DNA of 64,000 bases, taken from IMG/VR virus record IMGVR_UViG_3300028048_000052, positions 64,001-128,000 of that record; one strand, given 5' to 3'. Below, one piece after another: positions 1,246 through 63,327 of the stretch (position 1 is the first letter of the stretch; each line of letters begins with the position of its first letter). The stretch comes from a virus (taxonomy: Duplodnaviria; Caudoviricetes). The notes under the pieces were generated by a model, which was given only the letters and a program-made list of their open reading frames with translations, was not told where the DNA came from and did not search any database. The translations under genes were made by a program, and so were the position numbers.

Positions 1246-1986
1246 ATGGGATATATATATTTAATTACAAATAAAATTACAAATGAAAAATATGTAGGAC
1301 AAACTAAAAATTCAATTTATGTAAGATTTAGTGAACATATTAAATCTTATAAAAGAATACCAAATAGAAAATTATATAAGAATATGTTACAATATGGTAT
1401 TAATAATTTTGAACCAACTCTATTAGAAGAATGTGATAATTCTTTATTAGATGAAAAAGAAATAGAGTGAATAAAAAAAATAGACACATTTAATAACGGA
1501 TTAAATGAAACGCCGGGTAAAATTAGTTTTAAACAAAAAGAAAATAAAGATGATTCAAAAACAGCAATTCAAAAAAAATATGGGCAAAAAATTTATAGAA
1601 TTGACGCTGAGACAGGAGAAATATTACAAGAATATCCAAGTCAAATGGAGGCGGGAAGATGGCTAAAAGAAAATAAATTAAGTAATATAGCAGATTTAAG
1701 AAAATTATCTTATCATTTATCTATCGCTGCAAAAAATCATTATAAATTAGGTGGATTTTATTGGCAAACTCTTGAAATGCCATTAAGACAACGCGCTAAT
1801 AAAATTGAAGAAATTATTACAAGAGAAGAATTAAAAGATAAAATTAGAGTTCAAAGTTTTGTTAGTATTGGAAAAGAATACGGAGTTAATGCAACGTCAA
1901 TAACTAGATGGTGTGCTAAATATAATTTACCAACTACAAAAAAAGAAATTACATCTTACACAAACGAAGAATGGGAAAAATTATAA
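1246..1986 (+). CDS. GIY-YIG homing endonuclease with NUMOD1-like region (1 TGA=Trp)
   Basis: GYIY...KYVGQT; TGA at 1468 gives EIEWIKKIDTFNNGLN and joins the two track ORFs in frame. Confidence 0.85.
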
Positions 1987-2015
1987 TTTCCCTTCGGCTC
2001 CACCAAGAAAAATTC

Positions 2016-2040
2016 AAACTGGCATATGCCAGTTTTTTTT
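2016..2040 (+). terminator. intrinsic terminator
   Basis: AAACTGGC-ATAT-GCCAGTTT followed by a T run. Confidence 0.6.
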
Positions 2041-2071
2041 ATTATAATATAATAAAAGGAGAACTTTTAGA

Positions 2072-3793
2072 ATGAAAATTAGAATTAATACTTCAGTTTT
2101 ACGCATTCGTGCTGATCATTCTACAACAAGTGCTTCACTTGGATTTGCAAAACAAGGAACCCATGAGGTATTAGAAACCTATAATGGCTCTTCTTATAAA
2201 TGATATAAAATTAAAGAAGGTTGGGTTGCTGGTATCGATGAAGTAAAAGAGGTAGAAGAAAGCGCTATTGTCCCTGTAAAAGAGGATAAATCAAAAGATC
2301 AAATTTATATTGGTACAGATAGTTTGCGCATTCGTACCAAACCATCCACTTCTGGCGAAACGGTTGGATATTGCGAAATGGATGTTTTCTATAACGTCTA
2401 TGACACTAAAAAAGACGTTTATTATACTTGGTATAAAATTGGCGAGGACGCTTGATGCGCTGGCGTTAACGGAGTTAAATATCACCCCGCGAATGAATGG
2501 GTCAGTCCAACCCCAGTAGAAGCAGATAACTCTAAAAATCAAGTCTATATCGGCAATATTTCTTTGAAAATCCGGGCTTCATATAGCACAAGTAGCGCGC
2601 AAATGGGTCTTTGTGAAAAAGATTCTAATTATAACGTACTTGCGGTTAGAAAAGAAAGTGATTATACTTGGTATCAAATTGGTGAGAAGGCTTGGATCGC
2701 ACAAATTGACGATGGAGTTATTTATTATCCGGCCGGCTCATCAAGGATTGCCCCACAATTAAAAGCTGAATTAAATTTATTAAAGTTAAATATAGATACA
2801 GCTCTCAAATGTGTAGAAAAAAATAGAAATACGGAGCTATATGAAGTTTTATATAATAAAACTTTAGAAATTAATAAATATATCAATGATTATTTTGACC
2901 CATTTGAGTATGACTATGTTGATGAAAAAGAATATGATGAGATTGACTTACTTTACACCACCGACGTTCATGGCGCTTGGGCTGGTTATTCACTTGATGG
3001 TAACTATATGACCCCAATTTTCAGTTACCAAGACGTTGCAAATTACCAAAAGAAATTAGAAAAGAATAACATTAAAGCTCTTTTGGTTGATGCCGGTGAC
3101 TGGTCACGTCCTTCAAAGGCATATAATGATTATCTTAATACAGGCATCATGTATCCAGCAGAAGAAATGAAAAAAGCCAAATATTTTATGACAACATATG
3201 GAAATCATGAATGGCGTTGGTCTCAATATGGTCAGGCTGACACTCAATCAATTTTAAATAAACTCGGTTGTATGTGCGCTTGTAACTTATTTAAAAATGG
3301 CAAATTACTTTACGCTCCATATAAAACGGCTAAGATTGGCTCAAAGAGAATTGCGGTTATTGGTATAGGGTATCCATCAGCCAATGGCGCAGGAAGTTAT
3401 AGCGATGGTATTTGGACTTTTGGTGAATATCAATTCTATGATGACACAAGATTATTTAATCAAGTCCAGAAGTGTATCAATACATTAAAAGATAATGATT
3501 TTGATTATATCGTTGCGGTTTGTCATATGTGTAAATCAACATATGAGAGCGATAGTAGATATAAAGCAAGAACTGATAGTTTAATTCAAAATACAAATGG
3601 ATTAACTGCGGTTATTCAAGGTCATTATAACTTCGCGACAAACGCAGAAGTTATTAAAGACAAGGGCGGTAATAGAGTCTTATTAGCCCATGAAGCCGGT
3701 GCTAACTTAAATAGCTTCGGTAGATTAAAGATGAAAGACGGAAACATTACCTCTTATCTCTTGGATGAGAGAAGTGATTTAAACGTAATTTAG
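2072..3793 (+). CDS. triple SH3-like domain fused to a calcineurin-like metallophosphoesterase (5'-nucleotidase/CpdB N-terminal type); TGA=Trp
   Basis: AAGGAG RBS and ATG 2072; three LRIR...Y[KT]WY[KQ]I...W repeats; DVHG, DAGD, GNHE and GH motifs. Confidence 0.8.
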
Positions 3794-4093: not shown

Positions 4094-4168
4094 ATCGGCG
4101 TGGTGCAATTGGTAGCATACGCGACTCCAACTCGCTTGATCAGGGTTCGAATCCTTGCGCCGGTGCCA
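4094..4168 (+). tRNA. tRNA-Trp(CCA) with 4-bp anticodon stem (C27/U43 mismatch)
   Basis: Acceptor ATCGGCG/CGCCGGT, G73, CCA; anticodon arm CGCGA-CTCCAAC-TCGCT; T-loop TTCGAAT. Confidence 0.92.
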
Positions 4169-6253: not shown

Positions 6254-6625
6254 ATGGCAAAAAAAGTAAAAGTTATAAAAACAACTTTTTTATTGCGCAG
6301 AGGTACAACAGAAGCTTGAAATAGAGTAAACCCTGTATTAAAATATGGAGAACCCGGTTTTGAAAAAGACACCAATAAGTTAAAAATTGGCGATGGCGTA
6401 AAAGACTGGAAAACTCTTCCGTATTATAACGGATCTTTTGATATTTCTGTTGATGGTAAAAGCGTTGTTTTTACAAACAATAGTTTAGAATTATATGGAT
6501 ATGCTAATGCTAGCGTTGGACAAATCCCAAGAAAAAGCAGTGAAGGCTTGGAATGGAAAGACGCTCCGACCGCAATTCCTTTAGAAGATTTACAAGAAAT
6601 TTTTGATGATCAAGGAGGAGAATAG
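6254..6625 (+). CDS. Mtd/hyaluronidase N-terminal-like domain protein (1 TGA=Trp)
   Basis: RRGTTEAWNRVNPVLKYGEPGFEKDTNKLKIGDGVKDWKTLPY; TGA at 6317 is the conserved W; absent from the track. Confidence 0.85.
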
Positions 6626-6631
6626 AATTTT

Positions 6632-7963
6632 ATGGCTAATACTGAAAAGTTTTTAGACAAAAAAGGTGTTAAGGCTCTTTGGGAACAAATTCATAATACA
6701 TTTACGCATCAAGCGGATTATGAATTAGATAAAGCTGGCATGGAAGCTAATATTGAATCAATTCAAGCCGATATCCAAGCTTTACAAGAAGCTGGTATTG
6801 ATGCTGATACGATGGCAAGAATCATTGCCCTTGAAGAAAACGCGGCCGGAGAAGAAGATCGTATTAGTGAAGCCGTTCAAGCAGTTCTTGACGGTGCGCC
6901 AGAAGCCTATGATACTTTAAAAGAAGTTGCTGATTATATCGCAGCCGATGATGGTCGTGCTACTGATATGATTGATCGTATTACTAATTTAGAAAACGCA
7001 GAAATTCCTGCTTTAACTCCAGAAGAAGTTAAGGAAATCTGCGATAGAACTTATGACGAATTACACTTGCACAAATTTGTGGCGGCTGATAAAGAAGATG
7101 TTTTAAGAGCATTAAATAATATTGAAAATTCTGGTTCAATTGTTTTAGAAGATGATGTTGATTTAGAATCGCAAATTATCTCAATTCCAGAAGGCAAATC
7201 AATTTCTATTGACCTTGGTGGCAAGCAATTAAATATGGCTTCTGTTGGTAGCTACGCCGGTATGCAAATTATGGGCGATGTTTCTATTGAAAATGGTACA
7301 ATTAATGCTACAAAGAGAGCTCTTGCTGTATTTAATGGTGGCTCTTTAACTATTGGTGAAGGTGCTGATGTTATTTCTGGCGATGTCGCTGTTAGCGCGA
7401 ATGGCGCTGGCTCTGAGGTTGTTATGGATGGCGGTTCTATTACAGCTCAAGAGAGTGGTGTTTTAGTAACAACAGGTGCTAAGCTTGAAATGAACAGTGG
7501 CGTTATCACTGGTTTAGATAATGGTCCAATTATGGGTAACGGCACGAAAGGACAGGGAGATGTTGAAATTGTTATGAATGGTGGCGAATTAGTTGCTAAC
7601 ATTCAGTCCGCAGGTTATGTTGCTGTTGGCGTTTATATGCCAAATAGTGGCACATTCACTATGAACGGTGGTAAAATTACTGCTAATGGTGGTGCTGGTA
7701 TTGTTTGCCGTGGTGGTAAAACAATTATCAATGGTGGCGAGATCGTTGCTACTGCTCATCCAACACTTGAAGTTGGTAAGGTTGGCGACAGCCGTGTAGT
7801 TGTTCCTTGTTCTGCAATTGTTTATGATAAGAACAGTAAGTACCCAGCAATGGATACTCTTGAAGTTGTTATTGGCGCAGAAGCTGTTTTACAGGGCGCT
7901 CATGAAGATGTTACTGTTATTAGCGACGAAGAAAATCCAAGAATAGTTGATAATAGAGAATAA
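6632..7963 (+). CDS. putative virion fibre/decoration protein, paralog of 5064..6218
   Basis: GAPEAYDTLKEVADYI fibre motif plus the beta-helix-like C-terminus. Confidence 0.75.
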   Translation: MANTEKFLDKKGVKALWEQIHNTFTHQADYELDKAGMEANIESIQADIQALQEAGIDADTMARIIALEENAAGEEDRISEAVQAVLDGAPEAYDTLKEVADYIAADDGRATDMIDRITNLENAEIPALTPEEVKEICDRTYDELHLHKFVAADKEDVLRALNNIENSGSIVLEDDVDLESQIISIPEGKSISIDLGGKQLNMASVGSYAGMQIMGDVSIENGTINATKRALAVFNGGSLTIGEGADVISGDVAVSANGAGSEVVMDGGSITAQESGVLVTTGAKLEMNSGVITGLDNGPIMGNGTKGQGDVEIVMNGGELVANIQSAGYVAVGVYMPNSGTFTMNGGKITANGGAGIVCRGGKTIINGGEIVATAHPTLEVGKVGDSRVVVPCSAIVYDKNSKYPAMDTLEVVIGAEAVLQGAHEDVTVISDEENPRIVDNRE

Positions 7964-7980: not shown

Positions 7981-8184
7981 ATGGCTACAAGTAGAATTCA
8001 AAAATTTTTAGACCAAACTGGCGTATCTACTCTGTGAGCCAGAATACTTAAAGAGTTAGATAAAAAAGTTTCTAAAAATGATTTTAATCTATTACAAAAT
8101 CGTGTTACAGACATTGAAGACGGAGTCATTCTTTACGGTGGCTCCGCTACCGATGTTATTGAGGAGGAGATAAATAATGGCTAA
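7981..8184 (+). CDS. small virion protein (1 TGA=Trp)
   Basis: KFLDQTGVSTL(TGA) aligns with KFLDKKGVKALW of 6632; GAGG RBS. Confidence 0.75.
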
Positions 8185-10350: not shown

Positions 10351-10983
10351 ATGGCTGATTTAAGTAAAATAAAATTAAATGGAGTTACTTATAATTTTAA
10401 AGATGCTGGTGCTCGTACTGCTATAGGAAACTTAACTTCTTTTAATATTGAAATTATTTCAAGTTTTCCGGCATCACCAGATCTTCATACAATTTATTTT
10501 AAACAAAAAACTGGAACAAATAATGATATATATGACGAATACATGTATATTAACAACAATTGAGAATTAATTGGCTCAACAGCAGTAGATTTAAGTAATT
10601 ATTTACAAACTACTGATATTGCGGATTGAGCAAAAGCCTCTACAAAACCAACTTATACGGCTTCTGAGGTTGGGGCTATAGCGACTACGCATGTCGTAAA
10701 CAATATTACTTCAACCGATATTTCAAATTGGAATGCTAAATCTGATTTCAGCGGTTCATATAATGATTTAACTGATCAACCAACTATTCCAGCAGCGCAA
10801 GTTCAGTCGGACTGAAACGCAACTTCTGGAATGGGCGCAATTTTAAATAAACCGACAATTCCAGATCCTGTTTCAGTTTCAAATACTCTTGCTTCTGGAA
10901 CTCTCATCGCAACAATTAATGGTACAAATATTTATGCGCCAACTTATACAAATGGAGATAATCTCGCTTATGGGGGTAATTAA
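10351..10983 (+). CDS. fibre protein (3 TGA=Trp)
   Basis: Read-through gives YDEYMYINNNWELIG, WAKASTKPTYTASEVGA and QVQSDWNATSG, typical phage fibre motifs; ends TAA. Confidence 0.85.
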
Positions 10984-11621: not shown

Positions 11622-14210
11622 ATGGCTACATATGATATAACATCAAGTTCATTTAATATTGATAATATAGAAGAAGGCGATATTTTAAATTGCTCTTATA
11701 CTGGGGATGAAACACAAATTACTTTACCAGAAGGTGTATATATATTAACTGCTAAAGGGGCTACAGGCAATTTTGGCGGAAGAAACTCAACTACTACTGC
11801 GACATATACAGCAGTTGGTGGTGGCGGAACTTCAACTGGCACATTAGAATTAGAAGAAGAAACTACTCTTTATATAAATATTGGCGGTTGTGGCGAAACT
11901 TATACAGGCACATCAACAAATTCTCGTACCGGTGGCTATAATGGAGGTGGTTCTGCCAATTCTTATGGAGGAGTTGGCGGAGGCGCCACGCATATAGCTA
12001 CCAGAAGTGGTTTACTATCTGCTCTTGAGAATTATAAAAATACGATTATTATGGTTGCTGGCGGTGGTGGTGGAAGCGCTTATTACGGTTCTAAATATTA
12101 CGGAAATGGTGGCTCTGGCGGAGGAACTTCTGGTGAAGCTGGAAAATCAAATGGCTCAAATAGTACAAACTATGCTGGCCAAGGTGGAACTCAATCAGAA
12201 GGTGGCGCCGCTGGAACCAATTCAACAAGAAAAGGAACCGCTGGCTCATTTGGCCAAGGTGGTGATAATACCAGTGGTACAAGTTCTTATGCTTCCGCAG
12301 CTGGTGGTGGTGGCTACTATGGTGGTGGCGCCGCCTCAAACCAAGAAGGTGGAGGTGGAGGTGGTAGTGGATATGTGTCTACTTCTTTCTTAACTAACGC
12401 ATCAACGACACAAGGCTCATCCACAAGCACTTATACAAACGGCAGTTTAAGCATTGAGGTAGTAAGTTTAGCAACTACTATTAAGCATAATCTTGATTTA
12501 ACCCTTTCTGGTGGTAATTATACTTCTAATCATACGAATGGGACAATAGAGAAAAAAGAGGGTAGTTCTGAAACTATTTCATTTATTCCTCTTAATAGCG
12601 AAGACCCAGTAACCACGTATAAAAATGGGGTTGATATTACAAATCAATTACAACAAAATACATTAACAAGCGCTCTTAATATTACAACCCAAGCATCTGG
12701 AGCAAGTTATGGTTTTACTTTAAATAGCTCAACAGGATATTATGTTTCAAATAATAAAGGGGTATCTAAATCTGCGGCGGTAGCAAGAGTAAATATCACA
12801 GCCATTCAAAAAACGACAGTAACCTTTAAAGTAATTAACTATGCTGAAGAAGGATATGACTTTGGTGTACTTGGTCTTTTGGATACAACGTTAGAACCGG
12901 TTTATAATTCTGATAACTCTGGTTATTGAAGCGGATTTTCTAGCGATCATAATAAATCTACTGCTCAAACCGTTACCTATACGGTTCCTATTGGAGAGCA
13001 CTTTATTGATGTAAAATATATTAAAGATGACGCGACTGATGATAATAATGATACTTTACAATTTAAAGTATCCATGAATCCAGCAGCCGGATCAACGGTA
13101 CAAGAATATTCGTTAAATACCGGAGCAATAAATCAAGATACAGAAATAAAAATTGTTTGTGGTGATATATCTTCAAACTTTAATATTCGTACTACTGGAG
13201 AACATGCGTCAATTGACCCAGAAGATGAACAAGTTTATAAAGGTTCTAACTTGGAAATTCATTTTATGCCGACAGATACTGCTGATTACCGATATAGTAA
13301 AGTATTAGATAATAACATAGATGTTACCTCTTCGGTTATTGTTCCGCATACATTAGAGGCGCCAAGTTATGAAGTTACTTCCGTAAGCGGTGCGAGTTAC
13401 GGGTTTGCGTTAACTAATGGATATTACCAATCTCAAAATACAGCAAATAATACGGCTGCCCTGTGTCATGTAGTATTTACCACCCCGGTCGCCGCGAGAG
13501 TAACTGTTACTTATCAAAATAGTGGTAGTAGTACATATAATTTTAGTATGATTTCTGAATTAAATACCGAATTAAGAACAGACTACGCAACAGATACCTC
13601 TGGTATTCGTATGAATGGTTCAAGCAATTTCCACTCAAGTGATACCAGTTATACATTTGATATTCCAGCGGGAGAAAGTTTTATTACTTGTAAGCACAAA
13701 ATTTCTTCAAATAGTGGCACAAAAGGTAATTTAAAATTCAAAATTTCAATAGAAGCATTAGAAAGTTTGGAAATACCTTACTATACATATTCATTAACTA
13801 ATATACAAGAAATTCATAATATTATAATTCTTTCTGAAAAAATTCCTGTTTACACAATTACTGCAACCTGTGGCCCAATGGGCACCATTAATCCAAGTGG
13901 CGCAATTCAGGTTAAAGAGGGCGAAAATTTAACTATCACTGGTACTGGGGATACAAATTATTCCGTTGATAAAATTTTCTTAAATTCAGTATCAGTTGCT
14001 TTTAGTAACAATAGTTATACTTTAAGTAATATTCAAAGCGATGCGAATATTTATGTTTTATTTTCTTCTGGCGAAACTCAATTTTATTGGAAAGATGAAA
14101 ATACTTGAAGACAAGTGGTCCAAGTTTATAAAAAAGTAGATGGACGTTGGATAGAACAAGAATTTGCGTTAGTTGGTGATCCTAATGCTAAATATATAAA
14201 GAAAAATTAA
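11622..14210 (+). CDS. large glycine-rich receptor-binding/tail protein, about 862 aa (2 TGA=Trp)
   Basis: Two track ORFs join in frame through TGA 12927 and 14106; glycine-rich domain then repeated SGASYGFxL beta domains. Confidence 0.8.
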
Positions 14211-14225: not shown

Positions 14226-15047
14226 ATGAAAAACGAATATTTAATCTCTTTTGGGTGTATCCCAGATGAAGTTGATGTGCGTGATTATAAAATCTCAAGA
14301 GCTTCAATAAAACAGCAAAGTTTTCCAAAAACTTTTGAATGCGAAAAAACTATGAAAGTTAAACACCAAGGTAGTGTTGGTTCTTGTACTGCGCACGCAT
14401 TATCTTCAATTTTAGAATATCATTATACCGATAACGTAAAACTTTCTACAAATTTTCTTTACGGCATACATTATCAATTATATAATTCACAAGGACCGGG
14501 ATTAAGATTAAGAGAAGCATTAAAAATCGCCTCAAAATATGGAGATCCCGAAGAAAAATTATGTAAAGGGAATAATGAAGTAGAAAAAGTTTATAGCATA
14601 GCGGAAACCGCTTTTAATAACAAAGAAGTTATGAAAAATGCAGAAAAATATAAAATTAAAGAGTATGCTAGATTAACCAAAGATGATGATATAAAATTTT
14701 CATTAATTAATTATGGGCCGGTACTTGCGTCAATTGTGTGATATGAACAAAATGAAACCAATAAAAACGGGGTTTTAATTAAAGGCAAAACCGCAGATTC
14801 TCACCACGCTATTGTAATTTATGGGTGAAATGCCCAAGGATGACTTTGCCAAAATTCTTGAGGTGCATTATGGGGGAAAAGAGGCAGATTTATTTTACCT
14901 TTTAACTATGGAATTGTTGATGCATATTCAATAATCCCAAATAATGCCGAAGCATCAGAAATTAAAAAACCAATACAAAATTCTTTTGTTGACAGCATTT
15001 ATAAAGCAGTAAATAGTGTAATAAATTTATATAAAAAAAATAAGTAA
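14226..15047 (+). CDS. papain-like (C1) cysteine peptidase (4 TGA=Trp)
   Basis: QGSVGSCTAHA, HAIVIYGW and WLCQNSWGALWG; the His/Asn half appears only with TGA=Trp. Confidence 0.88.
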
Positions 15048-15470: not shown

Positions 15471-15485
15471 GGAAAGGAGATATAT

Positions 15486-49341: not shown

Positions 49342-49944
49342 ATGTTTACAATTTATTTACATAAAAATAAAATTAATAATAAAGTTTATATTGGACAAAC
49401 ATCGCAACCACCAATAGATAGATGAAAAAATGGTAAAGGTTATACGCAATGCTATCATTTTAATAATGCAATACAAAAATATGGGTGAGATAATTTTGAG
49501 CATATTATTTTAGAGCAAGGAGATTGAACGCAAGAAGAGGCGAATTATAAAGAACAATATTATATTAATTTATATGATAGTACAAATATAAATAAAGGTT
49601 ATAATATTACTAATGGTGGAAGTAATAATATTTCACCAAATGCTTTGCCAAATGCAATAAATTGAATGCGAGCACATCCTGATTTTGGATTAGCGAGGGC
49701 CAATGATATGTTAAAATGACAAAAAGAACATCCAGATGACGTTAAAAAGCAAAGAGAAAGAGCACAAAAAAAAATGGCAGAAGCAAGAAAAAGAAAAGTA
49801 TTATGTGTAGAAACTGGTGTTATTTATGAAAGTGCGTCAGAAGCAGCAAGACAAAACAAAGGAACAACACAAAGTAAAATTTGTATGGTGTGCAGAGGAC
49901 AAAGAAAAACGGCGGGAAGATTACATTGGAAATATGCTGAATAA
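49342..49944 (+). CDS. free-standing GIY-YIG homing endonuclease (5 TGA=Trp)
   Basis: FTIYLHKN...VYIGQT...RWKNGKGY...AIQKYGWDNF...KGYN; NUMOD1-like end; absent from the track. Confidence 0.88.
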
Positions 49945-51537: not shown

Positions 51538-52480
51538 TATATATATTAGTTGTGGCGTTGCGTTTGTTATAGGAATTTTATTTGCTTATTTAATTTTAAA
51601 ATCCAAATTAGATCATGTAGTTAAAATTAATGAAGATAATATAAAAAGAAATAAACAAATACAAAATGAGGTCATTTATTGAGAAAAGAAAAAAGAAGAA
51701 CTAAATAGCGAATATATAGATTTAAAATCATCTGCTTCATCTCTTGATGCTGAAATAAAAATAAAATCAGAAACGGCTCAAAATATTATTAATTCAAAAA
51801 TTGAATTAATGAAAGAACAAATGGATAGAAAAGCAGAAGATTTAGCAAATCAATATCAATCTGCTATTGATGATGCAAATTCTCAATATTTAGAAATATT
51901 AGCAGATTTATCCAAAACATCAATCGATACAACGGAATCAATTATTGAATTAGAAAAAAAATTAAAGGAATTAAAATCAAAGCATGATGCAGTAGTTGAA
52001 GATTATAAACGAGCGCAAGAGATGAATAATAAAAAAGATTTCTATCGTTTACAATTAACAGATATTGATTTAAAAGAAATAAAAAAATTGCGTGAGGTTG
52101 AGCCATATTTACGTGATGCGCGTCCACTTAATAAAGTCATTTGAAGTGTTTATTATGAGCACCCATATACTGATTTAACTGGGCGTATTATGGGAAGAGA
52201 AAAAAGAACGGGTATTTATAAACTAACAAATCTTACTAATAATATGGTTTATATAGGACAAGCTGTTAATATTGCAGAAAGATGAAAACAACATATTAAG
52301 TGCGCTATTGGGGCCGATAGTGCGCCTAATAATAAATTGTATCCGGTAATGCGGGCAATTGGCCCAGAAAATTTTACTTTTGAGATTATGGAAGAATGTT
52401 TGCCAGAAGAGTTAAATGAAAGAGAACAATATTGGCAAGATTTCTATAAGGCGAAAGAGTTTGGTTATAGTGTAAGATAG
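51530..52480 (+). CDS. membrane-anchored coiled-coil protein with C-terminal GIY-YIG domain (3 TGA=Trp; start uncertain)
   Basis: N-terminal transmembrane segment; TGIYKLTN...VYIGQAVNIAERWKQH...EREQYW. Confidence 0.75.
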
Positions 52481-52780: not shown

Positions 52781-54575
52781 ATGAAATTAGAAAATGTAAG
52801 AGTATATAATATTTCAACAGCGTTATTTGGAATGAGAAATCCAAAAAATTCTTGGGATAGAAGAGATACCAAGAGTGGAATTGCAACTTATGATGAAGTT
52901 GTTAAAATGGCTGAAGATAGCGAATTTGATTTAAAAGATATCCTTTTGTATCAAGATGATAATGAAATGTGCGAATATTGTGTTATCGGCCCTAACGATA
53001 TGAAGCTAGCAAAAGTATTAAAAGATGCTGGCACAGAACACCGTAAATATTTAAGACAAATCTTTGTTACAATGGATATTACTGCACCGTTATATTGGTA
53101 GACTTTCTGCCAAAAAATACTTTACCGCTTCATCAGCGGGGTCGCATTAGCGGCTAACGGGGAAGCCTAAACTGAAAAGCATGGTAATCCCGTGGGAAAT
53201 ATAAAAAATAATAAATTAAATGTGTCAAAATATATTAATTCTTATTATATGTTTCTTATATATAATAGGAGGATTAAATAATGAAACAAACAAGAAATTG
53301 TGGTCCACGAAAAGATTTAAGTGGAAAAAAATTTGGTAAATTAACTGCAATATATTATGTTCCAAAAGGAAAATGACATTGCAAATGTGATTGTGGAAAT
53401 GAATTAGATGTGGACACAAGAAATTTAAATAGTAATCATACACAAAGCTGTGGCTGCTTACAAAAAGAAAATGTAAGAAAAAATGCTATTGATATGACCG
53501 GGTATGAAAATAATGGTATTAAAGTTATATCAAAAGCCGAATCTGATAAAAATGGTTACGCTCATTGAAATTGTGAATGTAAAATATGTGGAAGAAAATT
53601 TACTTCTGCTGGTTCAGCTATTAGACAAGGTCTTGTTCAAAGTTGTGGATGCGTTCATTCATTAAACGAGCAATTAATAACAAAAATGTTATTAGAAAAT
53701 AATATAGATTTTGCTAGAGAATATACTTTTGGAGATTTAAAAGGAGTTAATGGTGGGGCATTAAGATTTGATTTTGCGATATTTAAAGATAAAAAATTAT
53801 CTCATTTAATTGAATTTAATGGAAAACAACATTACGAAAAATCAAAAGGTAGTTGAGAAAAAGAATTTGACACATTACAAAAAAATGATAAAATAAAAAA
53901 AGAATATTGTGAAAAAAATAATATTAAATTAATTATCATAAAATATGACCAACAATATTCTTTAAAAGATTTATTATAATTATAAACCTGTAGAGACTAT
54001 CCCGGGTGAGACTGGGAGTACGGCTTCTATTGATACGAAGTTGGAAATGGTATTCTCTTTAAATAAAGAGTAAAAGATAGTCCAATCTATTATGAAAATA
54101 ATAGATAATTGGGAAAGAATTTGATACCTATAAAATCGGTACAACATCCAATAGCCAAAGTACGATGCATAAGATGGCGGCTAAACCAATTACATTAGAT
54201 TGCTTTGAGATTGGTGATTATGAAAAAGATTTAGTTTTTGAAGAAAGCACAGCAGGTGAGCATTCTTGGGATTATCAGTGTAAAGTGGACCACGTTATAG
54301 GTGGAGAAAGCGAAGGCACTTATTATTGGGATAAATGCTACATTAAATTCTTGGAAATGTTGCGTTTAAAATATCTTGAAACAAAAGATATGCGCTACTG
54401 GAAAGAGTTAATTAGATGGCTTCCAGAAAGCTGGTTACAGACAAGAACAATTACTTTAGATTATGAAGTATTGAGTAGAATGTACCAACAGAGAAAAGAC
54501 CATAAATTAAGTGAGTGGCATTGGTTCTGTGACCGGATTGCTGATATGCCATATGCAAAAGACTTGATTTTATAA
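52781..54575 (+). CDS. thyX: ThyX-like flavin-dependent thymidylate synthase split by a group I intron (exons 52781-53099 and 54112-54575; 260 aa)
   Basis: GMRNP, EHRKYLRQI, spliced APLYW-WKEFDTYK, STMHK, LPESWLQTR, RKDHKLSEW. Confidence 0.72.
53100..54111 (+). mobile_element. group I intron carrying an endonuclease ORF
   Basis: P1 TTGGT/GCCAA with U.G; AACGGGGAA...AATCCCGTG; AGAGACTA...GATAGTCC; terminal G at 54111. Confidence 0.88.
53281..53979 (+). CDS. intron-encoded endonuclease with Cys-rich repeats and a Vsr/DUF559-like nuclease domain (3 TGA=Trp)
   Basis: DLSGKKFGKL, WHCKCDCG, SCGC twice, LRFDF...LIEFNGKQHY. Confidence 0.82.
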
Positions 54576-54623
54576 AAAAAATATGATATAATTATTATAG
54601 TATAGGGGGAATTTATATAGGAA

Positions 54624-54980
54624 ATGAAAAAGGATTTTTTAGAATTTTTAGACAACCTGATGGCAGCTGCGCCAGAACAGACAGCGAAGTACATGACGGA
54701 TAATGCAAAAACTTATGTAGAAGCTTTGCGTATGGCGTCAGAGGAGGAAAAGGAGAAGCCAGAAATGACTGATAACGGTAAGTTAATTCTTGGCTACATG
54801 CAGACGTCTAATATTAATGCTCTTACGGCAAAAAGAATTTCCGAAGGAATTTTGGTTAGTTCAAGAGGAGTTTCTGGGGCAATGAGAAAATTAGTAACAG
54901 ATGGCTACTGTGAAAAAGTGGGCACCAGCCCGTCCGTTTATATTTTGACAGAAAAAGGAAAAAATTATAAAATTAATTAA
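54624..54980 (+). CDS. winged-helix transcriptional regulator
   Basis: SSRGVSGAMRKLVTDGYCEK...YILTEKG. Confidence 0.75.
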   Translation: MKKDFLEFLDNLMAAAPEQTAKYMTDNAKTYVEALRMASEEEKEKPEMTDNGKLILGYMQTSNINALTAKRISEGILVSSRGVSGAMRKLVTDGYCEKVGTSPSVYILTEKGKNYKIN

Positions 54981-55007
54981 GTATTAAGAAAGAGGAATTT
55001 AGTAAAA

Positions 55008-55979
55008 ATGAAGAAAATGATTAATGCAACACACGTGGAAGGTTTGTTATACGACCACGCTTTAGAGGAAAAGGTGTCAGGTGCAAATTCTAAAAATCCC
55101 GGAACAAAATTTATCGCAGGAACTGTTGATGTAGCAACAGATAATGACGGTATTAATATTGTTTCAGTACATTATACCTATGTAACTCCAGTAACAGCAA
55201 CAGGAAAAGAAAATGCAACCTATACAACTTTGTTAAACATTATTAATGGAACCTATAAGACTGTTGTTAGAGACGGTTCTGATAATGCAACAAAGATTAG
55301 AATTGATTCTGCTATTGGTCTGAATGAATTTTATTCAGATAGAGATGGCACAGAAACACTTGTAAGTGTAAAGAGAAATGAGGGTGGATTTGTCCATACT
55401 AATGGAAACTTTACAGACGATGAAACATTAAGAAATACATTTGATGTTGATATTGTTATTACAGGTGTACGTCATGTTGATGGAGATGCTGATAAGGGAA
55501 CTGATGATAAGAGTATTGTTAAGGGAGCAATTTTTGATTTCAGAAACAGTTTATTACCAGTTGAATTTTCAGTAACAAATCCAGCAGCGATGAACTATTT
55601 TGAAGGATTAGATGCATCAAATAAAAATCCGATTTTCACAAGAGTAAGAGGTCGTCAGGTTTCTGAAACTATTACTCGTCAGATTACAGAAGAAGGTGCG
55701 TTTGGTGAACCGAGTGTAAGAGAAGTAAAAACCACTAGAAAAGATTTCGTTATTACTTGGGCGAAAGCTGAACCATATCTCTTTGATGATGAATCAACTT
55801 TAACAGCAGAGGAATTTAAGAAAGCGATCGCCGATAGAGAAATGGCGTTAGCTGAACTTAAGAGGAGAAACGACGAATACAAAGCAAATAGAAAAGCAGG
55901 TAATGGTATGCCATTTGGTGATACAAGTTCTACTACCACCAATGTTGCCGCGCCAGCAATGGGCTCATTTGATTTTTAG
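55008..55979 (+). CDS. probable single-stranded DNA-binding protein
   Basis: OB-like body with FDF C-terminus; upstream of the Sak4-like ATPase. Confidence 0.6.
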   Translation: MKKMINATHVEGLLYDHALEEKVSGANSKNPGTKFIAGTVDVATDNDGINIVSVHYTYVTPVTATGKENATYTTLLNIINGTYKTVVRDGSDNATKIRIDSAIGLNEFYSDRDGTETLVSVKRNEGGFVHTNGNFTDDETLRNTFDVDIVITGVRHVDGDADKGTDDKSIVKGAIFDFRNSLLPVEFSVTNPAAMNYFEGLDASNKNPIFTRVRGRQVSETITRQITEEGAFGEPSVREVKTTRKDFVITWAKAEPYLFDDESTLTAEEFKKAIADREMALAELKRRNDEYKANRKAGNGMPFGDTSSTTTNVAAPAMGSFDF

Positions 55980-55991
55980 GAGGTAAATTAA

Positions 55992-56984
55992 ATGTTAGAT
56001 ATTTTAAATTTACAACCTAATAAAGTTAGTCGTGATATGCGTGGATATTCGGTGTTGATGTATGGTACGCCAAAATCTGGTAAAACCACTACAGCATCTA
56101 AGTTTCCAAATGCATTACTTGTAGCTTTTGAAAAGGGCTATTCTGCTATTCCTAATGTATTAGCAGCGCCTGTTAACAGCTGGAATGAATTTAGACAGTT
56201 GCTTAAACAGTTAGAAAAACCAGAAGCAAAAGCAAAGTATTCTACTATTGTTGTAGATACAGCTGATATTGCTTATGATTATTGTGTTAAATATATTTGC
56301 GCCAAAGCAAGTGACGCAAAAAATGATTATGAAAATATTGGAGATATCCCCTATGGTAAGGGATATAAAATGGCTGAAACCGAATTTGATGAGTGCTTAA
56401 GAAAGATTCTTCAGATGGATTATGGTCTTGTGCTGATTAGTCATGCTACCGATAAAACTTTCACAGATACAAATGGTAATGAATATAACCAGATCGTGCC
56501 TACTCTTGACAATAGAGCAAGAAAGATTTGTGAAAGAACATGCGATATTATTGGTTATACCCATAGCGAGTACAATGCAGAGGGAGGCACTACCACTTAT
56601 ATGGAAATGCGTGGTACCCCAAGATATGTTGCCGGCTCAAGATTTAAATATACGCCAGATAGAATTGAATTAAGTTATGAAAATTTGTTAAATGCTATTA
56701 ATCATTCAATTGATGAAGAAGCAAAGAATTTAGGTGATCAAGTTTTAACAAATGAAAAATCAAATGTTCATCAGCAAGTTGAAAAAGAATATGACTTTGA
56801 TGCTATGATGGCAGAATTCCAAAACATTGTTGGTGCTTTAATGTCAAAGAACCAGAACAATGCGAAGAAGATTACTGCTATTGCTGATAAGTATCTTGGC
56901 AAGGGCAAGAAGGTTGGAGATTGCACTCCTACAAATGCCCCACAGCTTGACTTAATTCTTATGGAATTAAGAGAATTAGTATAA
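55992..56984 (+). CDS. Sak4-like (AAA_24) ATPase/annealase
   Basis: YGTPKSGKTT, IVVDT, LISH, CDIIGY. Confidence 0.8.
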   Translation: MLDILNLQPNKVSRDMRGYSVLMYGTPKSGKTTTASKFPNALLVAFEKGYSAIPNVLAAPVNSWNEFRQLLKQLEKPEAKAKYSTIVVDTADIAYDYCVKYICAKASDAKNDYENIGDIPYGKGYKMAETEFDECLRKILQMDYGLVLISHATDKTFTDTNGNEYNQIVPTLDNRARKICERTCDIIGYTHSEYNAEGGTTTYMEMRGTPRYVAGSRFKYTPDRIELSYENLLNAINHSIDEEAKNLGDQVLTNEKSNVHQQVEKEYDFDAMMAEFQNIVGALMSKNQNNAKKITAIADKYLGKGKKVGDCTPTNAPQLDLILMELRELV

Positions 56985-56987
56985 AAC

Positions 56988-57023
56988 AGTCAACCCTGAG
57001 GAAACTTGGGGTTGATTTTTTTT
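56988..57023 (+). terminator. intrinsic terminator overlapping the next promoter
   Basis: AGTCAACCCTGAG-GAAA-CTTGGGGTTGATT followed by a T run. Confidence 0.7.
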
Positions 57024-57050
57024 ATATTTTATGGTATAATATAGGTGTAA

Positions 57051-57566
57051 ATGGCTAAGTTAATGGTTAAATGCCCCGTTTGTGGGAAAAGTTTTGATAG
57101 AAATAGTACGCCATATCATCAAGAGGGTAGAAGATATTTACACATGGAGTGTTGGGCAAGAAGAGAAGCCTCAAAAACTCAAGATGATAAGGATAGAGAG
57201 GCCCTTGAAGAATATATCAAGGAACTTTTTAAATTAACGGTCATTCCGATTAAAATTGAAAAACAAATAAATAGTTTTCATAACGAATATGGTTATACTT
57301 ATACCGGGATTAAAAAAGCATTAGTATATCAATTTGAAGTTAAAAAAGGTGATATTAAACAAGCAAATGGTGGTATAGGTATTGTGCCATATGTTTATGA
57401 ACAAGCAAGAAATTATTATTATCAAATATGGGTAGCTCAACAACAAAATAATGATAAAATAATTAATGACTATATTCCTAGTGAGGTAAAAATAAAAATT
57501 AAAAATCCTCAAAAACAACCGAAAAGAAGAAAATTGTTTGAATTTTTAGATAAGGAGGGAGAATAA
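57051..57566 (+). CDS. Zn-finger protein, possible helicase loader
   Basis: CPVC...HMEC; GIGIVPYVY; coupled to the helicase. Confidence 0.6.
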   Translation: MAKLMVKCPVCGKSFDRNSTPYHQEGRRYLHMECWARREASKTQDDKDREALEEYIKELFKLTVIPIKIEKQINSFHNEYGYTYTGIKKALVYQFEVKKGDIKQANGGIGIVPYVYEQARNYYYQIWVAQQQNNDKIINDYIPSEVKIKIKNPQKQPKRRKLFEFLDKEGE

Positions 57567-59101
57567 TGGCAACAAGTAAATATGTTGATCCGACCGCAAT
57601 AATGCAAGTAGTTGGATGTGTGTATAATAATCCCTCTTTATTAGATGCAACAGATAAATACACAATAACAGCTGACGATTTTGCAGATGAATTTCATAGA
57701 ATTGCTTTTGGCTCAATTTATAAAATTCATGAATTAGGCGCAAAGAAAATTACATTAGAAAATATTATGGATTTCTTATCAAGTCGTCCCAAGAGTGAAG
57801 CTATCTTCAAACAACAAAAAGGTGAAGAATGGTTATTAAAAGTGGCTGAAAACGCAATCCCGGCTTCATTTGATTATTATTATAATAGATTAAAAAAGTT
57901 TAGTTTATTAAGAGCTTATGATAACTATGGAATTGATGTAAAATTCATTTATGACCCAGATAATATTCTTGATACAAAGAAAAAAGAATTACAAGAAGAG
58001 CAACTCGATAATTCAACATTGAACCAACTCGCTCAAAAAGTTGATGATATGATTGAGGGTATCCGGGCACAATATGTTGATGATGTATATCAAGAAGCAG
58101 TTCAAGCAAGCGATGGGCTTGAGGATTTGATTAAAAGTTTTAAAGAACGTCCAGAAGTCGGTGTACCAATGTATGGCCAATTAATCAATACAGTAACACG
58201 TGGCGCAAGGTTAGGAAAATTCTATTTACGTTCTGCGCCTACTGGTGTTGGTAAATCAAGAACGATGATAGCAGATGCTTGTTATATTGCTTGTAATGAG
58301 ATTTATAATGATACTATTGGAATGTGGGTTAAAAATGGAATTGTTCAACCGACTGTTTATATAACAACAGAACAAGATAAAAGTGAAATTCAAACCATGA
58401 TGCTTGCATTCTTAGCAAGCGTAAATGAAGAGCATATTTTAAACGGGAGATATGAAGGAGATGAAGAAGAAAGAATTTATTATGCTTTAAAGGTATTACA
58501 AAATTCTCCTTTATATATAGTTGAACTACCAGATTTTTCTTTACAAGATATTGAAGATATAATTAAAAAGAATATAAGAGAACATGATGTTAAATTTGTG
58601 TTTCATGATTATATTCATACAAGTATTAAAATTTTAGAAGAAATTACTCGTCGTTCTGGTGGAGTAAAATTAAGAGAAGATAATATCTTATTTATGTTAT
58701 CAACAAGATTAAAAGATATTTGTAATCAGTATGGAGTATTTATTTTATCAAGTACCCAGCTAAATGCGGATTATCAAGTGTCTGAAACGCCGGATCAAAA
58801 TTTATTAAGAGGAGCAAAAGCGATTGCTGATAAAATAGATTTTGGGTGTATATTGTTACCAGTTAAACAAGAAGATATTGAATCATTAGCAAAAGTTTTA
58901 CAAAGAAGTAATTTTGAAAAACCAACTCATAAATTATCAATTTATAAAAACCGAAGAGGTAGGTATAATGGAATATATTTATGGTGTAAAGGTGATTTGG
59001 GCACTTGTAGAGTTAATCCAATTTTTGCAACAAATTGGAGTTATGAGTTAATACAAATGGAAGATTTTCAAATTGAAGTAGAAAGTGATGGTGCGTTTTA
59101 A
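57566..59101 (+). CDS. dnaB: DnaB-like replicative helicase
   Basis: APTGVGKS, FHDYI, STQLN, IADKID, KNRRG. Confidence 0.88.
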   Translation: MATSKYVDPTAIMQVVGCVYNNPSLLDATDKYTITADDFADEFHRIAFGSIYKIHELGAKKITLENIMDFLSSRPKSEAIFKQQKGEEWLLKVAENAIPASFDYYYNRLKKFSLLRAYDNYGIDVKFIYDPDNILDTKKKELQEEQLDNSTLNQLAQKVDDMIEGIRAQYVDDVYQEAVQASDGLEDLIKSFKERPEVGVPMYGQLINTVTRGARLGKFYLRSAPTGVGKSRTMIADACYIACNEIYNDTIGMWVKNGIVQPTVYITTEQDKSEIQTMMLAFLASVNEEHILNGRYEGDEEERIYYALKVLQNSPLYIVELPDFSLQDIEDIIKKNIREHDVKFVFHDYIHTSIKILEEITRRSGGVKLREDNILFMLSTRLKDICNQYGVFILSSTQLNADYQVSETPDQNLLRGAKAIADKIDFGCILLPVKQEDIESLAKVLQRSNFEKPTHKLSIYKNRRGRYNGIYLWCKGDLGTCRVNPIFATNWSYELIQMEDFQIEVESDGAF

Positions 59102-59271
59102 TGGAAAATAAGATATGGATTGAAATTAATGTGTCTATTGCTGGTAACGGCGTTAGTGATGAGTATATGTTAAATAATATGGAAGATTATGGTTTGTATG
59201 ATAATATTGATGACGCTATTGGCGCATTAATAGATATACAAAATATTATGGAGGAAGAAAATGAAATATAA
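59101..59271 (+). CDS. small acidic protein
   Basis: 56 codons, coupled to both neighbours. Confidence 0.5.
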   Translation: MENKIWIEINVSIAGNGVSDEYMLNNMEDYGLYDNIDDAIGALIDIQNIMEEENEI

Positions 59272-59716
59272 AATTTTACAACTTGACGCAAACGGAAGAA
59301 TTAGCTTCACTAAAGAAGAATTAGAGAAGTTACTTGATGAAGTTTATAACAATGGATATGAAGATGGTAGAAAAACTTGCCAATATACGTATCCATATTG
59401 GTATTGGAAATCATATCTTACTACAACCCCAAATATTGTTTATACAGATAAAACAACAAATCCAACACTTCCAAATGACTATATTTATGTTGGTGATGAT
59501 CCAAATACGCTGGGAACAGTAACGACTGGAACGCCATTGAAAAATAATGGAAATACTGTCTGCACTGATATTCCAGATGATTCATCTCATTTTACACATG
59601 CAACTACAACAAACACAACCACAACCGCAAATACCGATTTTGCACCGCACTGGACAGCTGAAAGAGTTGTATACGGAACTAAAAATACATCAACAGATAA
59701 AAAGTATACAGGATAA
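59261..59716 (+). CDS. hypothetical protein with Thr-rich C-terminus
   Basis: GGAGG RBS. Confidence 0.6.
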   Translation: MKYKILQLDANGRISFTKEELEKLLDEVYNNGYEDGRKTCQYTYPYWYWKSYLTTTPNIVYTDKTTNPTLPNDYIYVGDDPNTLGTVTTGTPLKNNGNTVCTDIPDDSSHFTHATTTNTTTTANTDFAPHWTAERVVYGTKNTSTDKKYTG

Positions 59717-59719
59717 AAT

Positions 59720-60826
59720 ATGGCAGGATATGATAAATTAGAAGTAAGAGAAAAATTAGAAATAGAAGATATTTATAGTTTACTTCTTGAGTTTGGAGGT
59801 GAACCAGAATATTCTTCTTTTGGCATTATTTCAAGAACGATTTGTCATAATCCTGCGCATGAAGGAAGTCGCAAATTATACTATTATGAAAATAGTGATT
59901 TGTTTAGGTGTTATACTGATTGTGGCGATTCGTTTGACATATTTGAATTAGTCCAAAAGGTTAGTAGAATCCAATGGCATAAAGAAACAGATTTAAATGG
60001 GGCAATATATTATGTTGCGGTTAAATTTGGAATTGCGCCGAATTTTGGAACTGATGATGATAACGTAGTTAATGCCGAAGATTGGGAAGCATTTGAAAAA
60101 TATTCTCATATTAAAGATATTGAAATAAAAGATTTAAAAGTAACTCTTGAAGAATATGATGATAGTATTTTAGATAAATTGAGATATGATTTAAAATTAA
60201 CCCCATGGTTAAAAGAGCATATGACGCAAGAGGTTCTTGACAGCGCAAGGATTGGCTATTGGCTCGGTGGAGACCAGATAACAATTCCACATTATGATAA
60301 AGATGGTAGATTTGTTGGATTGCGTGGTAGAACCATGTGTAAAGATGAAGCCATGGCTTATGGAAAATATCGTCCTATAAAAATTATGGACACTCAATAT
60401 AATCATGCATTAAGTATGAATTTATATAATCTTAATTTTAGTAAAGATAATATAAAGAAAATGGGAAAAGCAATTATCTTTGAAAGTGAGAAAAGTTGTC
60501 TTATTTATAGAAGTTATTTTGGAAAAGATGCTGATATAAGTGTAGCGTGTTGTGGTAGTAATATCTCAGCATATCAAATTCAAATGCTTTTGGATGCTGG
60601 CGCAAAAGAAATTATAGTTGCATTTGATCGTGATTTTGAGGTCAAAGGCGATAAAACATATATGGCTCAAATTAATAAATATAAGAGGATATATAATAAA
60701 TATCATATTTATTGCAATATTTCATTTATTTTTGATAAAAATAATTTATTACCAATAAAAGCGAGTCCAATAGATAATGGTAAAGAAATATTTTTACAAT
60801 TATTTAATGAAAGAATCTTTTTATAG
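59720..60826 (+). CDS. dnaG: DNA primase
   Basis: TICHN...CYTDC zinc domain; GLRGR; TOPRIM FESEKS...AFDRD. Confidence 0.85.
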   Translation: MAGYDKLEVREKLEIEDIYSLLLEFGGEPEYSSFGIISRTICHNPAHEGSRKLYYYENSDLFRCYTDCGDSFDIFELVQKVSRIQWHKETDLNGAIYYVAVKFGIAPNFGTDDDNVVNAEDWEAFEKYSHIKDIEIKDLKVTLEEYDDSILDKLRYDLKLTPWLKEHMTQEVLDSARIGYWLGGDQITIPHYDKDGRFVGLRGRTMCKDEAMAYGKYRPIKIMDTQYNHALSMNLYNLNFSKDNIKKMGKAIIFESEKSCLIYRSYFGKDADISVACCGSNISAYQIQMLLDAGAKEIIVAFDRDFEVKGDKTYMAQINKYKRIYNKYHIYCNISFIFDKNNLLPIKASPIDNGKEIFLQLFNERIFL

Positions 60827-60837
60827 GAGGTATCTTA

Positions 60838-61578
60838 GTGCCAAAATTAATTGATTTGACCGGGAAAAAATTTGGAAAACTTATTGTAAAAGAAAGAGCA
60901 CCAAATAAAAATAACCAAGTATGTTGATTATGTAAATGTGATTGCGGGAATGAAGTAATTGTCACAAGAAGAGAATTATTAACTGGACATACTAAATCGT
61001 GTGGGTGTTATCGTAAAGAGATTACCGCAAAAAGAAATAAAGAAATAAAACCTAAAAAATTAGATGGGTTAAGATTTGGCAAATTAACTGTTTTAAAGCC
61101 AACTGAATTACGAGATACAAATGGCGCAATAATTTGAGAGTGTGTTTGTGATTGTGGAACACATACAATGGTTCGTGGAAATTTATTAGTTAATGGAATG
61201 ATACAGAGTTGTGGATGTGTAAAATCACAAGGAGAACAAAAAATTATTGACATTTTAAAAAAATATGATATAATTTATGAAAAAGAAAAAACTTTTGAAA
61301 CATGCCGTTATCCAGAAACAAATTTCTTATGTCGTTTTGATTTTTATGTTAATAATAAATATTTAATAGAATTTGATGGTGAACAACATTTTAAAAAAAG
61401 TAAATATAATAATAGTTGAAATACAGAACAACATTTAAAAGAAACTAAAATGCATGATGAATATAAAAATAATTGGTGTAAAGAAAATAATATCCCATTA
61501 ATTAGAATTCCTTACAACCATTTAAATGAATTAAAAATAGAAGATTTAATGTTAGAAACAAGTAAATTTGTTATTTAA
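60838..61578 (+). CDS. free-standing endonuclease of the same family as the thyX intron ORF (3 TGA=Trp)
   Basis: AGGAGG plus GTG; DLTGKKFGKL, WLCKCDCG, SCGC, RFDF...LIEFDGEQH. Confidence 0.82.
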
Positions 61579-61596
61579 TGAAAGGGTGGTGTTATA

Positions 61597-63327
61597 ATGA
61601 AATATATAATGCGTGGAGATTGAAATGAAAATAATAAAACTGCGCTTGTACGGGTTTTATTGAATAGGGGAATGAAAGAAGAAGATATTGAGCATTATTT
61701 AAATACAACAGACGATGATTTAATTGACCCATCCTTAATTGAAAATATACAAGAAGGCACTCAAATGCTTTTAAAACATATTAATGCCAACAATGATATT
61801 TATATTCAAGTAGATTCAGACGTTGATGGTTATACAAGTTCAGCCATTTTAATTAATTACTTGTATAAAGCATATCCAGATTTTGCTAAAACGCATATTA
61901 CCTATGGTCTTCATGAAAATAAAGAACATGGTATTGATATGGATGCTATTAAAGATAATATTAAATTAGTTGTTGTCCCAGATGCTGGATCAAACGAATT
62001 TGATTTACATGCTGAACTTAAATATAATGGGATTGATGTATTAATTATAGACCACCATAACGCAGAGGGCTATTCTGATTATGCGTGCGTAATTAATAAT
62101 CAAATTGGTAACTACCCGAATAAAGATTTATCTGGGGCTGGCATGGTTTATAAATTTTGTTGCTATCTTGATAAATATTTAGGTTTTGATTTTGCAGATG
62201 ATTTTATTGATTTGGCGGTGTTTGGGATAATCGCTGATGTAATGCCACTTACCAATTTTGAAACAAGAAGAATGATTGTTAAAGCAATAGATAATTTTAG
62301 AAGTCCATTTTTAAATGTTCTTGCTTCAGCTAATAGCTTTCAAAGTGGAGTTCAAATAGTTCCAAAGACATTCTCTTGGACTATGGCGCCAGCAATAAAT
62401 GCTATTTGTAGAATGGGTAATTTAGAAGATAAAAAAATTGTATTTGAAGCAATGCTTGAAAAAAATAGCGAATTAGAAGTTCCATCAACCAAAAGAGGGC
62501 ACAAAGGTGAAACAGAGTTATTAATTGAGCAGGCGGCAAGAGTTGCTAAAAATGTTAAAGCTGGACAAGACAGAGCAAGAGATAAATTATGTGAACAGTT
62601 TGAGCAATTAATTAATGATAAAAATTTACTTGAAAATCAAATCTTGGCTCTTAAAATGCCAGATTCAACCCAAGAGGATAGAAATATAACTGGGCTTGTT
62701 GCTAATAAATTAATGAGTAAATATCAAAGACCAGTTCTTGTACTGAGTAAAAAAGTATTAGAAGATGGCTCGGTTCATTGGGCCGGCTCTGGCAGAAATG
62801 GCGGAGATGGGTTAATTAGTTTTCAAAAATTCTTAATAGATTCAAATTTAGTAGATTGGGCACAGGGGCACGACAATGCATTTGGCGTTTCTATTCCCGA
62901 TGAAAATTTCTCTGCTTTGATACAATATGGGAATAAAGAATTGGCTAACTTTGATTTTACTCCAAAATATAAAATAGATATAGTATATTATGGGACAAAT
63001 ATCGATATTGGTGATATTGCTTCTATTGCTGATAATAATGATTTATGGGGAGAGGGTCTTGAAGAACCGAAGATTCTTATAAAAGATTTACCCATCAATT
63101 CAGCGCTTGCTGATATATCACCGAGAGGTTATTTTAAAATATCACTTGGATCTGAGTTAGATATTGTTAAAATGCGAATGGATTTTGATGAGTTTGATAA
63201 AATTATAAAAGGACCAAATAGTAAATTAGATATTATTGGAACTTGTTTCCGTAATGTTGGGTTTGGCGATGGTTTACAAATTAGAATTGAAGATTATGAA
63301 TTAAAAACACAGCAATGGTATTTTTAA
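61597..63327 (+). CDS. recJ: RecJ-like DHH exonuclease (TGA at codon 9)
   Basis: DSDVDG, IDHH, LSGAG, GSGR, GHDNAFG. Confidence 0.88.

Follow-up and report, generated by a model that had tools for sequence, protein, structure and literature searches.

We predict, with a probability of about 0.8, that the 64,000-nucleotide stretch analysed here (the window; bases 64001-128000 of one linear 175,154-bp IMG/VR virus record, IMGVR_UViG_3300028048_000052) is the central part of a complete tailed phage genome of 175 kb in which part of the genes use genetic code 4, with TGA read as tryptophan. According to this prediction no gene stops at UGA, the phage decodes it with a tRNA of its own (anticodon UCA), and the host uses the standard code. 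The phage is uncultured, from gut or rumen. CheckV completeness of the record is 100%, its GC content is 31%, and the plus strand holds nearly all genes of the window.

Coverage of the window by stop-to-stop open reading frames (ORFs) of at least 100 aa rises from 76% to 90% when TGA is treated as a sense codon; treating TAG as sense lifts it only to 79%. For the whole record, a greedy non-overlapping set of ORFs covers 82% under code 11 and 90.6% under code 4, with mean ORF lengths of 169 aa and 240 aa, respectively; TAG as sense brings no such gain. Comparison of coding densities, proposed in an earlier reading of the window from its sequence alone (the sequence-only reading), thus favors code 4 over code 11. 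Of 74 ORFs on the plus strand of the window with a length of 50 aa or more, 23 contain 65 in-frame TGAs altogether, and a 67-aa ORF at 7981-8184 adds one more, giving 66. That reading had placed the number of genes restored by TGA read-through at about 25, which is correct, as are the coordinates it gave. Its observation that the traced genes all end in TAA or TAG is also borne out (TAA in 56 and TAG in 18 of the 74 ORFs, TGA in none). In-frame TAA or TAG does not occur in these ORFs, and off-frame TGAs number 1,273. Thus, the TGA triplet itself is not rare.

The predicted assignment of TGA to tryptophan, with glycine rejected, holds in three independent comparisons: codon alignment to 63 relatives, Pfam scores with W or G, and alignments to PDB structures and related lysins. 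We collected 63 related phage contigs via the portal protein and aligned the code-4 ORFs of the record to them with TGA masked as X, reading the subject codon beneath each column. The TGA columns contain TGG in 659 of 1219 cells (54%), Phe in 102 and Tyr in 40, and the TGG control columns contain TGG in 1171 of 1941 cells (60%). Site by site, W is the most frequent residue at 14 of 26 TGA sites (F at 3 of 26) and at 27 of 42 TGG control sites. Glycine at TGA sites, which the sequence-only reading regarded as contrary to tryptophan, was found in 79 of the 1219 cells, and a single ambiguous column accounts for 71 of these. Cys was found at none of the TGA columns.

Pfam scores are higher with W than with G for Peptidase_C1 (48.6 vs. 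30.1 bits), SH3_3 (53.3 vs. 42.5), CHAP (46 vs. 38.8) and three GIY-YIG domains (35.5 vs. 32.2, 26.9 vs. 23.4 and 43.3 vs. 37.8, a drop of 3.3 to 5.5 bits with G), and the domain alignments continue through the TGA positions. In the papain-family protease, the TGA at 14859 falls on the invariant Trp of the NSWG motif of PDB entries 3ois and 5jt8, as had been suggested, and the TGAs at 14826 and 14841 fall on Y/W and F/W in these structures. Where they can be aligned, the TGAs of the endolysin face W, W, Y, W in L016, a relative from a phage, and Y, W, Y, W in L106, a lysin on a contig binned with a Bacilli metagenome-assembled genome (MAG). The motif KFLD..GV..LW is indeed spelled with TGG in the gene at 6632 (N-terminal KFLDKKGVKALW) and with TGA in the ORF at 7981. 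Two further motifs cited in the sequence-only reading contain TGA as described, but the Trp is not conserved: in the radical SAM motif WGGE (QLwGGE, TGA at 26199) the Radical_SAM score is 23.1 bits with W and 24.7 with G, and at the TGA of the GIY-YIG motif KYGwDNF (49486) the paralogs show I, I, P and K. Two other TGA columns of this GIY-YIG family are aromatic or Trp in paralogs.

The reassignment therefore stands; the implication that it extends evenly across the window does not, as TGA use is split by gene class. The features on which this split rests are the following.

1246..1986 (+): GIY-YIG homing endonuclease (PF01541), 1 TGA at 1468 (paralog column EQY[W/Y])
2072..3793 (+): protein with two SH3_3 domains (Pfam SH3_3) and a metallophosphatase domain, 2 TGA
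6254..6625 (+): ORF of the code-4 ORF set, 1 TGA
6632..7963 (+): tail-fibre-like gene, 0 TGA
7981..8184 (+): 67-aa ORF with the N-terminal motif KFLDQTGVSTLw as in the gene at 6632, w being TGA
10351..10983 (+): tail-fibre-like protein (phrog_9729, tail fiber), 3 TGA
11622..14210 (+): large glycine-rich (ALK_LTK_GRD) protein (PF12810, 96.9 bits), 2 TGA
14226..15047 (+): papain-family cysteine protease (PF00112), 4 TGA (14739, 14826, 14841, 14859)
15420..17690 (+): 756-aa protein with a weak, sub-threshold phage-tail-repeat match, 7 TGA
19046..19879 (+): homing endonuclease (phrog_314), 2 TGA
20777..21343 (+): ORF of the code-4 ORF set, 2 TGA
21391..23523 (+): radical SAM and glycosyltransferase-2 fusion (PF04055, PF00535), 4 TGA
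23501..24640 (+): ORF of the code-4 ORF set, 2 TGA
25968..27365 (+): radical SAM enzyme (PF04055, PF13353), 4 TGA, including the one at 26199
27404..28819 (+): ORF of the code-4 ORF set, 5 TGA
28813..29124 (+): small ORF of the code-4 ORF set, 2 TGA
29195..30013 (+): ORF of the code-4 ORF set, 1 TGA
30015..36735 (+): TGA-free block (0 TGA)
34056-35384 (+): RNA ligase (phrog_968) inside this block
36256-36735 (+): membrane protein (hydrophobic segments) inside this block
36846..38054 (+): endolysin with CHAP (PF05257) and SH3-like domains, 7 TGA
38057..38443 (+): paralog of the SH3-like wall-binding domain, 1 TGA in a GW motif
39397..49299 (+): nearly TGA-free block with formate-tetrahydrofolate ligase, topoisomerase II subunits and the N-terminal part of DNA ligase (phrog_543, 551, 3869)
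42661-42915 (+): small ORF with 1 TGA inside this block
49342..49944 (+): GIY-YIG homing endonuclease (PF01541) between the two DNA ligase ORFs, 5 TGA
51809..52480 (+): GIY-YIG endonuclease (PF01541), 2 TGA
53281..53979 (+): DUF2726-like nuclease-type protein, 3 TGA
54165..60826 (+): TGA-free replication block with Sak4-like protein, DnaB-like helicase and primase (phrog_124, 19, 47)
60838..61578 (+): HNH-type homing endonuclease (phrog_374), 3 TGA
61597..63327 (+): RecJ-like exonuclease (DHH, DHHA1), 1 TGA, spanned by the phrog_2484 match (residues 1-572 of 576)

The replication-type blocks contain 0 TGA and 78 TGG codons, vs. 65 TGA and 71 TGG in the other genes of the window (Fisher P = 1.2e-16). 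Replication-type genes thus comprise about 7,300 codons without any TGA, and elsewhere TGA makes up 48% of Trp codons. Trp frequency is equal in the two classes only with TGA as W (1.07% vs. 1.15%; 0.60% otherwise). Genes free of TGA are those for RNA ligase, formate-tetrahydrofolate ligase, both topoisomerase II subunits, NAD-dependent DNA ligase, the Sak4-like protein, the DnaB-like helicase, primase and small neighbours. Genes with TGA include those for tail-fibre-like proteins, the papain-like protease, the radical-SAM/glycosyltransferase island, the endolysin and its SH3 paralog, and RecJ, along with five GIY-YIG, HNH or other homing endonucleases. Beyond the window, a sigma-factor gene has 6 in-frame TGAs, and the genes for the portal protein (2), the tape measure protein (4) and further large tail proteins (4 to 15) contain them too.

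By its sequence, the phage encodes a cognate UGA decoder. ARAGORN and Rfam calls for the whole record gave 14 tRNAs and a transfer-messenger RNA (tmRNA), none with anticodon UCA. A candidate tRNA(UCA) gene lies outside the window, on the minus strand (G000:C1:142869-142564, 306 nt). A 210-nt insert with a final G interrupts it between anticodon positions 34 and 35, leaving a 5' exon of 35 nt and a 3' exon of 61 nt that closes with GCCA. We removed the intron by hand, by coordinates, before the ARAGORN call; the joined 96-nt exons are then called as tRNA-Trp(tca) at 95% of the default threshold (-ps95). The joined molecule has the tRNA-Trp acceptor features A1:U72 and G73 and the anticodon loop CUUCAAA. 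It also has a long extra arm, the loop of which (CUCCAAC) is identical to the anticodon loop of the phage tRNA-Trp(CCA). The 210-nt insert shares a conserved group I core (GTAGAGACTA..., GAAGA.ATAGTCCAGAC.ACAA) with the intron of a second split tRNA gene of this phage, tRNA-Leu(UAA) (window 518-809, plus strand). In the latter gene the intron follows U34, is about 205 nt long (554-758) and matches the Rfam model Intron_gpI (RF00028) with 45.4 bits and E = 1e-10 (gathering score 50); the tRNA was missed by both ARAGORN and the Rfam tRNA model. The tRNA(UCA) is most likely the UGA reader on these sequence features, and we infer that its exons would be joined by splicing, that the host enzyme would charge it with Trp, and that it would suffice to decode UGA. 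Genes for release factor 1 (RF1, PF00472) and tryptophanyl-tRNA synthetase (TrpRS, PF00579) were not identified in the phage genome. The phage also encodes a separate tRNA-Trp(CCA) (4094..4168, plus strand), an ordinary UGG reader by ARAGORN (Rfam 53.3 bits). Reading by hand gave A1:U72, G73, U11:A24, a C27/U43 mismatch and a 4-bp anticodon stem.

The host is likely a walled, standard-code member of the Bacillota with release factor 2 (RF2). The standard code is likely because the replication genes are free of TGA, the phage has its own tRNA(UCA), its clade is of mixed code and RF2 occurs in the genomes of the lysin's relatives. Across about 20 kb around the portal gene, a coverage rule gave 29 TAG-recoded, 23 standard-code and 4 TGA-recoded relatives, and two more with in-frame TGA; in the standard-code relatives TGA makes up 11% of stops. 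About half of the related IMG/VR contigs (phages of about 150-195 kb) reach normal coding density only with TAG as sense. The nearest bacterial relatives of the lysin are from a 1.2-Mb Bacilli MAG, a Clostridiaceae isolate and a Ruminococcus MAG, and RF2 (prfB) was found above the curated cut-off in all three (3/3). The CHAP and SH3 domains of the lysin were confirmed by Pfam, so the host would have peptidoglycan, as the sequence-only reading had concluded. Its further proposal that the code of the phage differs from that of the host gains indirect support from the four observations that point to a standard-code host, which fall short of proof.

The formate-tetrahydrofolate ligase was compared with copies in 301 genomes. 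It is 59% identical to the best matches, Bacillota copies that are TGA-free inside; identity falls to 42-43% for copies with TGA from small, mycoplasma-like genomes. Host assignment by this identity was rejected, as the best value of 59% is too distant. The topoisomerase subunit gave tblastn matches only 32-36% identical, which are of no use for taxonomy, and when 9.9 kb of the window was compared with GenBank phages by megablast, nothing matched.

Several observations weigh against the prediction as a whole. ARAGORN at default settings, with or without -i, misses the tRNA(UCA), and the call needs both manual removal of the intron and a relaxed threshold; its D arm is irregular. An Rfam scan of the locus at E <= 1 gave no tRNA or intron match, and RF00028 run on the whole genome matched two other introns but not this insert. 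A DNA search in nine related records found no copy of the tRNA(UCA) (the five TGA-recoded ones are fragments, 14-36% complete), and the 17-mer of its second arm has no exact match in IMG/VR. No CRISPR-spacer or prophage match identified the host, and the lysin and the ligase reach only 43-62% identity to their relatives. One TGA column, in the gene at 53281, faces Gly in 59-71 cells; these come from distant paralogs at 31-43% identity, the alignment is ambiguous, and a W stands two positions off. Two Radical_SAM scores are slightly better with G, by 0.6 and 1.6 bits. Finally, the replication-associated RecJ gene has one TGA, so the split by gene class is not absolute.

The Gly column is what could be said for TGA as glycine (code 25), as selenocysteine, or as nothing, in pseudogenes or assembly errors. 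It is single and ambiguous, the other TGA columns behave as TGG columns, and the lower Pfam scores with G and the lack of Cys argue against the first two; 66 TGAs against zero in-frame TAA or TAG do not resemble decay. On the relatives' codon columns and the Pfam scores we rejected all of these readings, which we consider exceedingly improbable. Given TGA as Trp, the host itself could be a mycoplasma-like or other bacterium in which UGA is Trp, so that phage and host share the code and there is no switch. The low GC content, the lack of TGA stops and the missing host identification are compatible with this. We consider it improbable, since no selection against TGA would be expected in the replication-type genes of such a phage. 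Its own tRNA(UCA), relatives that mostly use the standard code or are TAG-recoded, a lysin implying peptidoglycan, and lysin relatives in RF2-bearing genomes also argue against a code-4 host.

UGA might also be read wholly or partly by a near-cognate tRNA-Trp(CCA), the phage copy at 4094-4168 or a host copy, and the intron-split locus would be unneeded. In the phage copy the anticodon stem is 4 bp long and the U11:A24 pair is that of the Hirsh suppressor, though this pair is common in tRNAs and not diagnostic of a suppressor. Only 35% of code-4 phage genomes yielded a suppressor tRNA, although non-canonical ones were expected to be missed (Borges et al., 10.1101/2021.08.26.457843). Against near-cognate reading, a tRNA with the cognate anticodon UCA is present in the genome, and genes with 7 to 15 UGAs would give almost no full-length product by leakage. 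We regard this route as very improbable and favor decoding by the tRNA(UCA).

Decoding by the tRNA(UCA) would have consequences for the timing of infection. UGA encodes about half of the Trp in genes for tail and tail-fibre proteins, endolysin, radical-SAM/glycosyltransferase proteins, and GIY-YIG and HNH homing endonucleases, and is absent from the genes of the replication blocks and of nucleotide metabolism. Genes free of UGA could be translated from the start of infection in a standard-code, RF2-bearing host, and UGA-bearing genes, that for the lysin included, would not give full-length protein until the suppressor tRNA has appeared. The result would be a gate on the timing of late genes and lysis, as proposed by Borges et al. 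(10.1101/2021.08.26.457843). A code switch that is two-tiered or timed beyond this published model seems unlikely. In one version, lysin, tail and sigma-factor mRNAs would become readable at a time set by splicing of the group-I-type intron of the sole tRNA(UCA) gene. In the other, the tRNA-Trp(CCA), which is separately promoted and has a weakened anticodon stem, would give early leaky reading of UGA. Either version would keep the homing endonucleases inside TGA-free early genes silent until late infection.

The sigma-factor gene (phrog_5767, G000:C1:22150-23211, minus strand) lies outside the window. With its 6 in-frame TGAs, synthesis of the sigma factor would depend on the suppressor, and a late-transcription cascade is possible.

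TGA-to-Trp recoding has been described in gut phages of standard-code Firmicutes, the 'Agate' clade among them (Borges et al., 10.1101/2021.08.26.457843, later in Nat Microbiol), which confirms the statement in the sequence-only reading that code-4 phages are known. Agate phages are 154 +/- 27 kb and come from animal guts, cattle included; intron homing endonucleases are preferentially recoded, and clades mix codes 11, 15 and 4 (Borges et al., 10.1101/2021.08.26.457843). The phage studied here is like them in size class (175 kb) and low GC, in its recoded intron-type homing endonucleases and recoded modules across the genome, in having close relatives that are standard-code or TAG-recoded, and in the presence of a suppressor tRNA(UCA). 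This likeness is one of described features. Every element fits the description by Borges et al., and recoding of this kind, a host with a different code and a bias by gene class have all been published. A suppressor tRNA split by a group-I-type intron and carrying a second, CCA-bearing arm is not described in the part of that paper's text available to us.

The 'Jade' phages share with this phage the TGA-to-Trp switch and lysis genes with in-frame TGA. Their code-change module comprises a suppressor tRNA, TrpRS and RF1 upstream of the lysis cassette (Borges et al., 10.1101/2021.08.26.457843). Unlike them, this phage is without RF1 and TrpRS, and its tRNA(UCA) is not beside the lysin. Dual-coded crAss-like phages, as far as they are described in the accessible part of the Mgcod preprint (10.1101/2022.06.29.495998), likewise have blocks that need or do not need the reassigned stop; those are crAss-like phages, and this one belongs to a portal-defined clade of phages of about 150-195 kb. 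In-frame TGA as sense is also a feature of the code-25 phages of Absconditabacteria and Gracilibacteria and the phages of code-4 mycoplasmas. Unlike in the former, TGA here faces Trp or aromatic residues rather than Gly. Unlike the latter, this phage has a split by gene class, a peptidoglycan-targeting lysin and its own UGA decoder.

As the phenomenon is already published, the recoding here opens no new question. The record adds one more clean complete-genome case of an early-standard, late-recoded split, and supports stop-codon recoding as a gate on late and lysis genes. The item of most interest tied to the recoding is the tRNA(UCA), with its intron-split gene and second CCA-bearing arm, which lies outside the window. 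For annotation, this record and about 60 related IMG/VR contigs need code 4 or code 15, and code 11 breaks the lysin, tail genes, radical-SAM island and homing endonucleases into fragments.

Some further RNA features were identified. A tRNA-His(GTG) at window 442-512 (plus strand; Rfam 45.6 bits) is missed by ARAGORN. The tmRNA at window 817-1162 (plus strand; Rfam 81.6 bits) has an atypical tag peptide by ARAGORN, ending in ...MAYTFA vs. the usual ...ALAA. An odd tRNA outside the window (G000:C1:46077-46151, plus strand; Rfam 34.7 bits, missed by ARAGORN) adjoins tRNA-Glu(UUC) and has an A2:C71 mismatch and the loop UUCUCAG. It was considered as a suppressor and rejected, as its anticodon in the Rfam alignment is CUC. 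A group-I-intron-like core at 19767-19994 (plus strand; RF00028 40.6 bits, under the cut-off) adjoins the homing endonuclease at 19046-19879.

Among the protein-coding genes, the island at 21391-30013 (plus strand) of radical SAM, glycosyltransferase-2 and uncharacterised genes is readable only with TGA as Trp. The formate-tetrahydrofolate ligase (39397-41025, plus strand; PF01268, 788.6 bits) is full-length and a host-like metabolic gene. The NAD-dependent DNA ligase is encoded in two plus-strand ORFs, the adenylation part at 48169-49299 and the HhH and BRCT part at 50218-51066.

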